Positions 2,712 to 5,896 of a stretch of DNA of 22,781 nt are shown here, piece after piece. Under the pieces are notes generated by a model, which saw only the letters and a program-made list of their open reading frames with translations, did no database searches and was not told where the DNA came from. Each line of letters starts with the position of its first letter. Position 1 is the stretch's first letter. Source of the DNA: a virus; the UHGV virus genome UHGV-1752254; one strand, given 5' to 3'. The position numbers were made by a program, and so were the translations under genes.

Positions 2712-2738
2712 AACCGCCATATTTGGCGGTTTTTTTTA
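2712..2738 (+). terminator. Strong intrinsic terminator closing the tRNA transcription unit
   Basis: 8-bp stem AACCGCCA / TGGCGGTT with loop TATT, followed by a run of eight or more T. Confidence 0.7.
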
Positions 2739-2762
2739 TTCCTTCCTCAGGACAAAAAAAGA

Positions 2763-2797
2763 CACGAGCATCCTGGAATACTCGTGGGACAAAGTCC
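2763..2797 (+). repeat. Hairpin-plus-GGGACAAAGTCC module, copy 1
   Basis: Inverted repeat CACGAG (2763-2768) / CTCGTG (2781-2786) with a 12-nt loop, immediately followed by GGGACAAAGTCC (2786-2797), which contains the palindrome GGAC-N3-GTCC. Confidence 0.5.
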
Positions 2798-2832
2798 TTT
2801 AGATAGCAATTTGCGAGAGGGTGAAAAAGTAG

Positions 2833-2867
2833 CGCGGTCGTCGGATTAAGACCGCGGGACAAAGTCC
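2833..2867 (+). repeat. Hairpin-plus-GGGACAAAGTCC module, copy 2
   Basis: Inverted repeat CGCGGTC (2833-2839) / GACCGCG (2850-2856) with a 10-nt loop, immediately followed by an identical GGGACAAAGTCC (2856-2867). Same architecture as copy 1, 70 bp downstream. Confidence 0.5.
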
Positions 2868-3127
2868 ATGAAGAATAATAAGTATTGGCCCCCTTCTGGG
2901 GACATGTTCATACTACTAAGCTTCAGAAGTGGTTTAAATCATCAAATTGACCTTAATTTTCGATAAGTCTTATTTCATTTCTTTGCGCCACATCTGGCGC
3001 GCATCAAATAACGCCACGCAAAGGGCATCTGCGGATGCCGGTGCTTTTGACGGGGTGTTTTTTACGGGCCGCTGGTGGCCATTTTTTGTTTCCATTACAC
3101 AGCGCCCGCATCTGCGAGGTGGGGGTT

Positions 3128-3343
3128 ATGAAATCCATGGATAAGTTAACAACGGGTGTCGCCTATGGCACCTCCGCAGGCAGTGCTGGCTACTGGTTTT
3201 TACAGTTGCTCGATAGAGTAACTCCGTCACAGTGGGCTGCAATCGGTGTGCTGGGTAGTCTGGTATTTGGCCTGCTGACGTACCTGACAAACCTTTATTT
3301 CAAGATTAAAGAAGATAAGCGCAAGGCTGCGAGAGGTGAATAA
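3128..3343 (+). CDS. S: Class II holin (pinholin), phage 21 S-like, with dual-start motif
   Basis: 71-aa product [71 protein letters not shown]: two TM helices and a charged C-terminus. Met1-Lys-Ser-Met4 gives the antiholin/holin dual starts (ATG 3128 and ATG 3137). G-rich RBS upstream. The track ORF 3035..3343 is the same frame with an unlikely upstream start. Confidence 0.9.
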
Positions 3344-4301: not shown

Positions 4302-4438
4302 AATCTTAACTACAATATGATTCATTTTGATGATTGTTTCATAAGGAACAGTGAAGTAAGATCTAAGAGGAGTTAAATTTTATACAGTATAATCATAATA
4401 TTGCAGCAAGGTGGTTATAATTGAAAGAATATTTAGAT

Positions 4439-5896
4439 ATGAATACATCTCATGTAAGAGTTGTTACTCATATGTGTGGGTTCCTGGTTTGGCTCTATAG
4501 TCTTTCAATGTTGCCACCAATGGTTGTAGCATTGTTTTATAAAGAAAAAAGCCTGTTCGTTTTCTTTATAACTTTCGTTATATTTTTTTGCATTGGTGGC
4601 GGAGCGTGGTATACAACTAAGAAATCTGGCATTCAATTACGTACCCGTGATGGGTTTATTATAATTGTAATGTTTTGGATTTTGTTTTCTGTTATTAGTG
4701 CATTCCCTTTATGGATTGACTCAGAACTTAATTTAACGTTCATTGATGCTCTGTTTGAAGGGGTTTCTGGAATAACAACAACAGGAGCAACTGTAATTGA
4801 TGATGTTAGTTCATTACCTCGGGCATATTTGTACTATCGGTCACAGTTAAATTTTATAGGTGGTTTAGGAGTTATTGTTCTGGCGGTTGCTGTATTGCCA
4901 TTATTGGGTATTGGTGGTGCAAAGCTTTATCAGTCAGAAATGCCGGGGCCATTTAAGGATGACAAACTCACTCCCCGCCTGGCCGATACGTCACGGACAC
5001 TGTGGATAACTTATTCTTTATTAGGTATTGCTTGTATTGTCTGTTATAGACTTGCAGGAATGCCTTTGTTTGATGCTATTTGTCACGGGATTTCCACAGT
5101 TTCGCTTGGTGGTTTCTCAACTCATAGCGAGAGTATCGGATATTTTAATAACTATTTGGTTGAGCTGGTGGCTGGTTCTTTTTCCCTGCTATCGGCTTTC
5201 AACTTCACTCTTTGGTATATTGTTATTAGCAGGAAAACGATAAAACCTTTAATCAGAGATATTGAACTTCGTTTCTTTCTGTTAATAGCCTTAGGGGTGA
5301 TCATTGTTACCTCTTTCCAGGTCTGGCATATAGGTATGTATGACTTGCATGGAAGTTTTATTCATTCGTTTTTTCTTGCCAGCTCCATGCTCACTGATAA
5401 TGGTTTAGCTACGCAGGATTATGCAAGTTGGCCCACGCACACGATAGTGTTTTTGCTGTTGTCAAGTTTCTTTGGGGGATGTATAGGTTCAACTTGTGGT
5501 GGAATTAAGTCACTTCGATTTCTTATACTTTTCAAACAAAGCAAACACGAGATAAATCAGCTTTCTCATCCCAGAGCGTTGTTGAGTGTAAATGTAGGAG
5601 GGAAGATAGTTACAGATCGTGTAATGAGGTCTGTATGGAGTTTCTTTTTTCTTTATACTCTCTTCACGGTGTTTTTTATACTGGTGTTAAATGGTATGGG
5701 ATATGATTTTCTTACATCATTTGCAACAGTGGCTGCATGTATTAATAATATGGGATTAGGTTTTGGGGCTACTGCATCGTCATTCGGAGTGCTTAATGAC
5801 ATTGCAAAATGTTTAATGTGCATAGCTATGATTCTTGGTCGCCTTGAAATTTATCCTGTTATTATATTGTTTTCAGGTTTTTTTTGGCGCTCCTAA
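4439..5896 (+). CDS. trkG: Trk-system K+ uptake protein, TrkH/TrkG family
   Basis: 485-aa polytopic membrane protein from ATG 4439, starting MNTSHVRVVTHMCGF as I recall Rac-prophage TrkG. An in-frame TTG at 4421 with an AAGGTGG RBS is an alternative start. Several glycine-rich selectivity-filter-like motifs (TTTGATV, GGLGV, SLGGFS, GSTCGG, NNMGLG). The gene and its upstream region are visibly AT-rich relative to the flanks. Confidence 0.9.
   Translation: MNTSHVRVVTHMCGFLVWLYSLSMLPPMVVALFYKEKSLFVFFITFVIFFCIGGGAWYTTKKSGIQLRTRDGFIIIVMFWILFSVISAFPLWIDSELNLTFIDALFEGVSGITTTGATVIDDVSSLPRAYLYYRSQLNFIGGLGVIVLAVAVLPLLGIGGAKLYQSEMPGPFKDDKLTPRLADTSRTLWITYSLLGIACIVCYRLAGMPLFDAICHGISTVSLGGFSTHSESIGYFNNYLVELVAGSFSLLSAFNFTLWYIVISRKTIKPLIRDIELRFFLLIALGVIIVTSFQVWHIGMYDLHGSFIHSFFLASSMLTDNGLATQDYASWPTHTIVFLLLSSFFGGCIGSTCGGIKSLRFLILFKQSKHEINQLSHPRALLSVNVGGKIVTDRVMRSVWSFFFLYTLFTVFFILVLNGMGYDFLTSFATVAACINNMGLGFGATASSFGVLNDIAKCLMCIAMILGRLEIYPVIILFSGFFWRS

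Follow-up and report, generated by a model that had tools for sequence, protein, structure and literature searches.

Among the described prophage-encoded small RNAs (sRNAs) that depend on Hfq, PasA and PasC of enteropathogenic Escherichia coli (EPEC) E2348/69 (Pearl Mizrahi et al. 2021, PMC8550237; Zhu, Shabalina & Storz 2026, bioRxiv 10.64898/2026.05.13.724894) are the closest analogues of the element analysed here, which lies between two tRNA genes and the holin gene of UHGV virus genome UHGV-1752254 (the window, i.e., the whole stretch of 22,781 nucleotides that was analysed). Like this element, PasA and PasC are located directly upstream of a holin/lysozyme operon, on the strand opposite to the lysis genes, and possess an intrinsic terminator. 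An earlier note on the window had drawn attention to two modules, each composed of an inverted repeat and a shared 12-mer, and had correctly placed them between the tRNAs and the holin gene, where late transcription passes. Recurrence of the modules in relatives, which that note had proposed as a check, was found in 65 distinct sequences, and since they are conserved there with compensatory changes, the modules are considered real. The observation was nevertheless read on the wrong strand, and the elements, as terminators, are ordinary in kind. In the explanation that we favour and regard as probable, the modules are two tandem Rho-independent terminators (T1 and T2) on the minus strand, at which a small RNA gene that has escaped annotation has its 3' end; this gene lies antisense to the leader of the late operon in an intact Rac prophage. 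The elements probably mark a new and unannotated family of sRNA-like genes with a near-universal paralog in the E. coli core genome.

Structure and conservation of the minus-strand element

Both modules were present as claimed, with the inverted repeat CACGAG(CAT)/(ATA)CTCGTG at 2763-2786 followed by the 12-mer GGGACAAAGTCC at 2786-2797, and the inverted repeat CGCGGTC/GACCGCG at 2833-2856 followed by an identical GGGACAAAGTCC at 2856-2867, the spacing from start to start being 70 bp. The 12-mer GGGACAAAGTCC occurred exactly twice in the 22.8-kb window, both times at the modules; an exact 12-mer repeat within 100 nt was noted in approximately 8% of block-shuffled windows, and the repeat by itself is only mildly unusual. 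On the minus strand each module consisted of a 4-bp mini-hairpin GGACUUUGUCC, a GC hairpin and a U-tract, the complete reading being ...UUCUUCAU-GGACUUUGUCC-CGCGGUC(UUAAUCCGAC)GACCGCG-CUACUUUUUC...(26 nt)...GGACUUUGUCC-CACGAGUAU(UCCAGG)AUGCUCGUG-UCUUUUUUUGUCC. The features of the element, listed from 5' to 3' on the minus strand, are as follows.

2933-2938, minus strand: -35-like hexamer TTTAAA; (G)TTTAAAC nearly invariant in the 65 distinct relatives and also present in paralogs with unrelated RNA bodies
2910-2915, minus strand: -10-like hexamer TAGTAT, 17 nt past the -35-like hexamer; TTAGTA(G/A)TAT conserved, spacer variable, same spacing in paralogs
2754-2905, minus strand: predicted small RNA, about 82 nt to T1 (near 2824) or about 152 nt with read-through to T2 (near 2754)
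2888-2903, minus strand: 5' hairpin GUCCCC-AGAA-GGGGGC; C-G to U-A compensatory change in 26/65 relatives, U.G wobble on the minus strand (equal to a C-A mismatch on the plus strand) in 40/65
2868-2887, minus strand: single-stranded A/U-rich stretch CAAUACUUAUUAUUCUUCAU, a putative seed and U-rich Hfq site; unpaired in minimum-free-energy and centroid folds
2857-2867, minus strand: proximal mini-hairpin GGAC-UUU-GUCC, corresponding to the second 12-mer (2856-2867); stem invariant in all members
2833-2856, minus strand: T1, proximal terminator hairpin CGCGGUC-UUAAUCCGAC-GACCGCG, hairpin 2 of the earlier note; U-A to C-G compensatory change in 29/65
2824-2832, minus strand: T1 tail CUACUUUUU, a weak U-tract in the window's lineage
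2787-2797, minus strand: distal mini-hairpin GGAC-UUU-GUCC, corresponding to the first 12-mer (2786-2797); replaced by UGGC-AUU-GCCA in 25/59 relatives with pairing kept
2763-2786, minus strand: T2, distal terminator hairpin CACGAGUAU-UCCAGG-AUGCUCGUG, hairpin 1 of the earlier note
2752-2762, minus strand: U-tract of T2, UCUUUUUUUGU, containing U7; the supposed third copy of the motif at 2750-2763 is its complement

The statement that neither hairpin is followed by a U-tract held for the plus strand only. On the minus strand U7 followed hairpin 1 and CUACUUUUUC followed hairpin 2, where U7 was present in many relatives. The conclusion drawn from it, that these are not ordinary terminators, was therefore reversed: on the minus strand they are ordinary intrinsic terminators, each with a mini-hairpin in front, with stems of 7 bp (T1) and 9-10 bp (T2), module energies of -15.0 and -16.2 kcal/mol, and U-tracts (UCUUUUUUU for T2, CUACUUUUU for T1) that have no counterpart on the plus strand. 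T2 was flagged as a minus-strand terminator by a scan that allows loops of up to 8 nt, and T1 was missed because its loop of 10 nt exceeds this limit. The sequence GGACAAAAAAAGAC (2750-2763), described as a degenerate third copy, was no copy of the motif, its A-tract being the complement of the minus-strand U-tract UCUUUUUUUGUCC past T2. The 105-residue minus-strand open reading frame (ORF) at 2545-2862, rightly regarded as spurious, runs across three terminators. No conserved ORF was found on the sense (minus) strand of the element; a 21-codon candidate beginning in the -10 region was rejected, its start codon being missing in many relatives and the reading frame being a different one in K-12.

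Under the favoured explanation, a sigma-70-like promoter, TTTAAA-N17-TAGTAT (2938-2910), would direct transcription from near 2903-2905, a start placed from the -10-like hexamer, through the 5' GC hairpin and the 20-nt A/U-rich strand to the mini-hairpin and terminator. If this promoter fires in lysogens, the product would be an RNA of about 82 nt with its end at T1. Because the T1 tail is interrupted in the window's lineage (CUACUUUUU as opposed to U7 in other lineages), a share of transcription is likely to read through to T2 (U7), giving about 152 nt, and a proper 3' end would be regained at this second terminator, which has a mini-hairpin and a U7 of its own. The RNA is presumably an Hfq-type base-pairing sRNA, and predicted features of an Hfq module include the U7 of T2, the tail of T1 (U5 in the window, U7 in many relatives) and the U-rich UUAUUAUUCUUCAU before the mini-hairpin. 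Action in trans would involve the variable single-stranded stretch, a likely seed. The late transcript is fully complementary to this RNA at approximately 220-370 nt upstream of the start codon of the holin gene, and for this reason a cis effect on that transcript is possible as well, either by formation of an RNA duplex or by interference from convergent transcription, the gene being oriented against the late operon and converging on a plus-strand terminator at 2712-2741. Of the options listed in the earlier note, the one that is supported is that the modules are part of a small RNA, although on the strand opposite to that considered.

The conserved order of these features was evident from a pattern scan of IMG/VR, which yielded 116 loci with 65 distinct sequences. 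The whole interval was present in two phage records and in 390 of 5426 complete E. coli genomes, and the core of the element in 369 genomes of the latter set (approximately 7%), where it was never annotated as an RNA gene. From 5' to 3' on the minus strand, relatives contained (G)TTTAAAC, a variable spacer of 17 nt, TAGTAT or TAATAT, a hairpin (GUCCCC/GGGGGC, GUCUCC/GGAGAC or GUCUCUCU/AGAGAGAG), about 20 nt of A/U-rich sequence, GGACUUUGUCC, a hairpin CGCGG(Y)N/N(R)CCGCG and a U-tract. The first loop base of the proximal mini-hairpin was U, A, C or G, and one sequence (L210) had a U.G wobble on the minus strand in this hairpin. The T1 tail was CUACUUUU(U)C in 29 of the 65 relatives and U6-U9 in the remaining 36. 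Three kinds of sequence were noted past the proximal U-tract, i.e., the distal module of the window, an alternative module of the same design (UGGCAUUGCCA, then CACGGACA...UGUCCGUG, then U-rich sequence) or unrelated DNA; in one group of relatives homology ended right past the T1 U-tract, leaving a single site. In the second tRNA-holin copy of phage SerU-LTIIb, the block 2745-2930 was missing as one unit. This loss and the variable 3' neighbours indicate that the unit behaves as a cassette, the constant part of which extends from the promoter-like element to the proximal terminator.

Assignment to the minus strand follows from the pairing retained in relatives. Pairs of the 5' hairpin were kept in 95.9% of cases when read on the minus strand and 85.9% when read on the plus strand, and the corresponding values for T2 were 94.4% and 85.9%. 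These differences are due to U.G or G.U pairs on the minus strand, which were seen in 40/65, 35/59, 9/59 and 5/59 sequences and which become C-A mismatches on the plus strand. T2 showed A-U to G-C and G-C to A-U compensatory changes, together with minus-strand U.G or G.U wobbles in 35/59 and 9/59 relatives. Retention of pairing in a changed palindrome, together with wobbles on one strand only, indicates the behaviour of an RNA structure rather than the conservation of DNA half-sites. Compared with shuffled sequences, folding was favoured on the minus strand (z -3.5, -3.0 and -4.1; z -1.5 on the plus strand), and the fold predicted for the 82-nt form consisted of a hairpin, a single strand, a mini-hairpin and a terminator. 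In alignment A2, 96.4% of cells were paired and 30 were changed on both sides, a result reached in 0 of 500 shuffles, with 41-54% for slid controls; in the family-wide alignment A3, which was fitted to covariance model R1, 95% of cells were paired and 8 pairs were changed on both sides. The score of model R1 on 2822-2909 of the minus strand was 111.9 bits.

The yodB-serU paralog and other family members

A paralog in the E. coli core genome was found through BLAST matches of the core that were limited to the mini-hairpin and the proximal terminator.

L211 1560-1683 and NC_000913.3 about 2,043,059-2,043,182, plus strand: K-12 paralog between yodB and serU

This paralog was present in 5418 of 5426 E. 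coli genomes (99.9%), and no RNA or gene is annotated at the locus in K-12 RefSeq. Model R1 matched it with 51.3 bits. It carries a promoter-like element, TTTAAA-17-TATGAT, which was flagged by the promoter scan and contains the same TTTAAAC, a different 5' hairpin and single-stranded body, an identical mini-hairpin GGACUUUGUCC, the same terminator stem as T1 with a near-identical 10-nt loop, and one terminator only. In published Term-seq results (Adams et al. 2021, PMC7815308, supplementary file 1), an 'orphan' 3' end was mapped at K-12 2043181(+), which was seen in lysogeny broth (LB) at an optical density (OD) of 2.0 and in a third condition but not in LB at OD 0.4. The sequence up to this end is ...AATTATGGACTTTGTCCCGCGGCTTTAATCTGACGGCCGCGTTCCTTTTTT, followed by GACTC, and the position corresponds to the last U past the module. 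This mapped end is direct evidence for the module as the end of an RNA that runs in the proposed orientation. Neither an sRNA at yodB/serU, nor the 12-mer, nor the K-12 coordinate was the subject of any relevant report found in the literature, and the yodB-serU locus was absent from the RIL-seq supplements examined.

Further members with other bodies were recovered by a broader scan and model R1. A second family member was noted in some E. coli prophages approximately 0.9 kb from the first and on the same strand (L060 1961-2042, minus; L095 6812-6891, plus); in this member a separate GTTTAAAC-N17-TATACT element precedes a body that differs from the first, and the terminator stem is GCGACC/GGUCGC, which is compensatory with respect to CGCGGUC/GACCGCG. 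Others were found in prophages without a match in the E. coli genome collection (L230 2330-2490, L236 5790-5950 and L216 2670-2756). The L230 member lies between Q and a TerB-like gene and the L236 member directly upstream of holin genes, both antisense to these genes. In an IMG/VR scan with the promoter pattern alone, the matches were apparently unrelated AT-rich chance occurrences, as judged by the sources of the contigs.

Among paralogs with unrelated 5' parts, in which the stretch corresponding to 2868-2887 is swapped for unrelated sequence, the 10-nt terminator loop UUAAUCCGAC (window 2840-2849) and the GGAC/GUCC stem (2857-2867) were nearly invariant. The 3' cassette of the family is defined by these parts, i.e., the GGACNUUGUCC mini-hairpin and a terminator with the 10-nt loop UUAAUCCGAC. 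Conservation of the loop and the mini-hairpin stem is far above the need of termination and hints at a specific partner; a search for complementarity elsewhere in the window found none beyond chance for either the single-stranded stretch or the conserved loop. We propose, tentatively, that these elements could form an undescribed modular family of enterobacterial sRNAs with a fixed promoter, a near-invariant 3' cassette and exchangeable 5' hairpins and seeds, members of which would lie antisense in the late leader of prophages (Q to holin), with one domesticated between yodB and serU. The cassette might then, beyond its role as a terminator, be specifically recognised by a protein or by a kissing-loop partner, and the prophage copies might tune late/lysis genes or host genes in lysogeny.

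Alternative explanations

The alternative that survives best, although we consider it improbable, concerns a small plus-strand gene.

2868-2966, plus strand: 32-codon ORF directly after the second 12-mer; a rival or cis-target, outside the preferred model

On this account the 32-residue gene is the selected feature, the modules are elements of its 5'-untranslated region that occlude the start, and the minus-strand RNA might be its antisense regulator in an arrangement resembling a type I toxin-antitoxin system. The earlier note had missed this frame, the ATG of which is abutted by the second 12-mer. Across approximately 25% nucleotide divergence, 95 of 123 loci (77%) retained an intact ORF of unchanged length and stop, with ATG or GTG as start and CGA, CGG or AGA for the final Arg; its in-frame ratio of nonsynonymous to synonymous polymorphism (pN/pS) was 0.38, and the predicted single-stranded stretch of the minus-strand RNA is exactly antisense to its start codon and first six codons. 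However, variable columns were distributed 15/11/15 over the codon positions without an excess at the third, and pN/pS for control frames ranged from 0.36 to 1.11. In the other 28 of 123 loci, which include lineages in 9-11 independent contigs, the ORF carried 1-nt indels or stops that spared every RNA hairpin. The ORF lacks a Shine-Dalgarno sequence, is not called by RefSeq annotation and is absent from paralogs in which the promoter and 3' module are retained, K-12 and L037 among them. The peptide lacks the hydrophobicity of type I toxins, has no hydrophobic run of membrane-helix length and matched no Pfam or PHROG entry. Thus, the small hydrophobic toxin ORF under antisense RNA that typifies type I systems was not found here: the antisense overlap exists, but 23% of loci are broken and the coding signal is weak. 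A 41-residue ORF (2970-3095, minus strand), annotated as hypothetical in some RefSeq genomes and one phage record, was rejected as probably not a gene, being broken by 5-nt and 6-nt indels in relatives.

Slightly less probable still is the possibility that the modules are terminators and nothing more, i.e., a bidirectional insulator, or a 3'-end remnant of a moron cassette that was exchanged at an insertion hot spot between Q and S, without a functional RNA. The Q-to-holin interval is indeed mosaic among relatives, some of which hold TerB/DUF3927 genes, toxin genes or nothing in this position, and model R1 recognised the T2 module as a second, degenerate copy of the complete unit (17.9 bits, E 0.007), suggestive of a duplication that later decayed. 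On the other hand, paralogs of differing body retain the terminators together with the promoter-like element, 5' hairpin and spacing, and a core-genome copy with a discrete 3' end in vivo is present in 99.9% of E. coli genomes.

There is little to recommend the view, another proposal of the earlier note, that in the plus-strand late transcript the hairpins serve RNA processing, stabilisation or attenuation in the stretch from the tRNAs to the lysis genes. Q-antiterminated transcription passes through them and they can form in plus-strand RNA too, but in that RNA the minus-strand wobble positions become C-A or A-C mismatches, there is no U-tract past the hairpins and the fold is not clearly better than that of shuffled sequences, while in K-12 the same module is not part of a phage late operon, and the 3' end mapped there is on the strand equivalent to the minus strand of the window. 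Operator sites, i.e., GGAC-N3-GTCC palindromes bound by a dimeric regulator, would accord with two identical palindromic 12-mers 70 bp apart, but this reading, also put forward in the earlier note, is scarcely credible given that one site is UGGC-N3-GCCA in 25/59 relatives (half-site changed, complementarity kept), that G.U wobbles occur on one strand only, an asymmetry meaningless for duplex DNA, and that one group of relatives has only a single site.

Several points weigh against the small RNA gene that we favour. The promoter-like element of the window matched the consensus at 8 of 12 positions and was not flagged by the promoter scan, and its function as a promoter is putative. T1 in the window has 5 consecutive U, fewer than the at least 7 typical of Hfq-binding sRNAs (PMC4509938), and both Hfq binding and RNA targets of the element are likewise putative. 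The prophage copy is known here from its sequence, the mapped 3' end being that of the K-12 paralog. In the pattern used to collect alignments A1 and A2, the 3' arm of T1 and portions of the T1 loop and of the 12-mer were preset, and the invariance of these positions in both alignments is in part a product of the collection; A3 was itself aligned to a model. Covariation came mostly from a few haplotype classes and accordingly represents few independent events. Lastly, the promoter-like and 5' hairpin segments overlap the plus-strand ORF, which is open in 77% of loci, and this may be part of the cause of their conservation.

Genomic setting and comparison with known systems

An intact Rac prophage, inserted at ttcA, is represented in the window by its late half; an identical stretch was found in E. 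coli EC190486 (NZ_CP143092.1), where intR, xisR, ralR, recET, kilR and sieB are present on one flank. The neighbouring features are as follows.

418-1846: DUF1367 and DUF1364 genes and a Q-like antiterminator gene (DUF1133)
2200-2275: tRNA-Thr
2279-2353: tRNA-Gly
about 775 nt from the tRNAs to essD: non-coding interval containing both modules
2712-2741, plus strand: convergent intrinsic terminator AACCGCCA-UAUU-UGGCGGUU followed by U8; strong and conserved in relatives
3129-3343: essD (holin)
after essD, to the end of the window: rrrD, then Rz/Rz1, trkG, and head and tail genes

ARAGORN and the Rfam tRNA model identified only the two tRNAs at 2200-2353 in the window, and an origin of the modules from a tRNA remnant was rejected. 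The plus-strand terminator at 2712-2741 closes the tRNA/STnc100-like transcript 11 nt away from the T2 tail. A sub-threshold match to the Rfam family STnc100 (19.9 bits compared with a gathering score of 47) was noted at 2545-2741 on the plus strand, downstream of both tRNAs, and this stretch may be a diverged member of the STnc100/PasD group. Just past the Q-like gene, the plus-strand region 1866-1960 contains a terminator (stem-loop 1926-1957, then a T-rich run) with weak matches to leader-like or sRNA-like Rfam families; it is probably the pR'-tR' short transcript of the phage, an analogue of lambda 6S RNA or StxS. Two terminator-like hairpins (3024-3048 and 3067-3090, plus strand) were seen directly upstream of the holin start, and this stretch of approximately 90 nt is common to phages with quite different holins, i.e., phiP27, an Actinobacillus phage, cdtI and mEp460. 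The potassium transporter gene trkG (4421-5896, plus strand) is a cargo gene of this complete Rac prophage, flanked by the lysis cassette and the terminase genes. The prophage also carries the anti-phage pair iteA/iteS, located just upstream of the window (L212 14258-17651).

Should this RNA be transcribed, Rac-type prophages that are intact encode a regulator head-on against the transcript for the holin, endolysin and spanin genes. The core-genome paralog would be a new candidate for the heavily studied list of K-12 sRNAs. The finding also explains spurious ORF calls over the region.

None of the 4227 models of Rfam 15, searched at a permissive E-value, identified a family at 2750-2945 on either strand, the match to astro_FSE (16.5 bits compared with a gathering score of 70) being at chance level. 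IpeX of DLP12 and phage PA-2, which is the 3' untranslated region of the porin gene nmpC/lc, resembles the window element as an opposite-strand RNA in the interval from Q to the lysis genes that ends at an intrinsic terminator; it had no sequence similarity to the element, and R1 had no match in the DLP12 region of K-12.

The SgrS module for Hfq binding, which reportedly was described by Otaka in 2011 and Ishikawa in 2012, is laid out as a U-rich stretch, a small hairpin, a terminator hairpin and poly-U. The layout in the window, where the small hairpin abuts the terminator hairpin, resembles this module, a resemblance only. Terminators of sRNAs are often read through, 3'-extended forms lose Hfq binding, and read-through is caught by a terminator placed downstream (Morita et al. 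2015, PMC4509938). Compared with the SgrS module, the T1 tail of the window has 5 U and the natural locus itself has a second terminator with its own mini-hairpin. The locus of the orphan 3' end in K-12 differs from that of the window in being part of the core genome (the yodB-serU spacer) rather than the late leader of a prophage.

PasA, PasC and PasD of EPEC E2348/69 gave no BLAST match to the element, and model R1 had no match at the pas loci. Nevertheless, Pas variants, like members of the window's family, share a common 3' end and differ in the 5' part. The preprint on these RNAs links STnc100 and PasD and places both next to PasA/PasC (bioRxiv 10.64898/2026.05.13.724894), and the PasD/STnc100-like RNA upstream on the late strand of Pas loci is mirrored in the window by the weak STnc100-like match at 2545-2741. 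PasA lacks the mini-hairpin that is present in the window element, and Hfq dependence is established for the Pas RNAs and putative for the window element. The window element appears to be an unannotated RNA outside Rfam, Pas and IpeX. If the favoured explanation is correct, this locus is a second, unrelated solution to the PasA/PasC arrangement, and it would suggest that a slot for an antisense sRNA upstream of the lysis cassette is a general feature of lambdoid phages.

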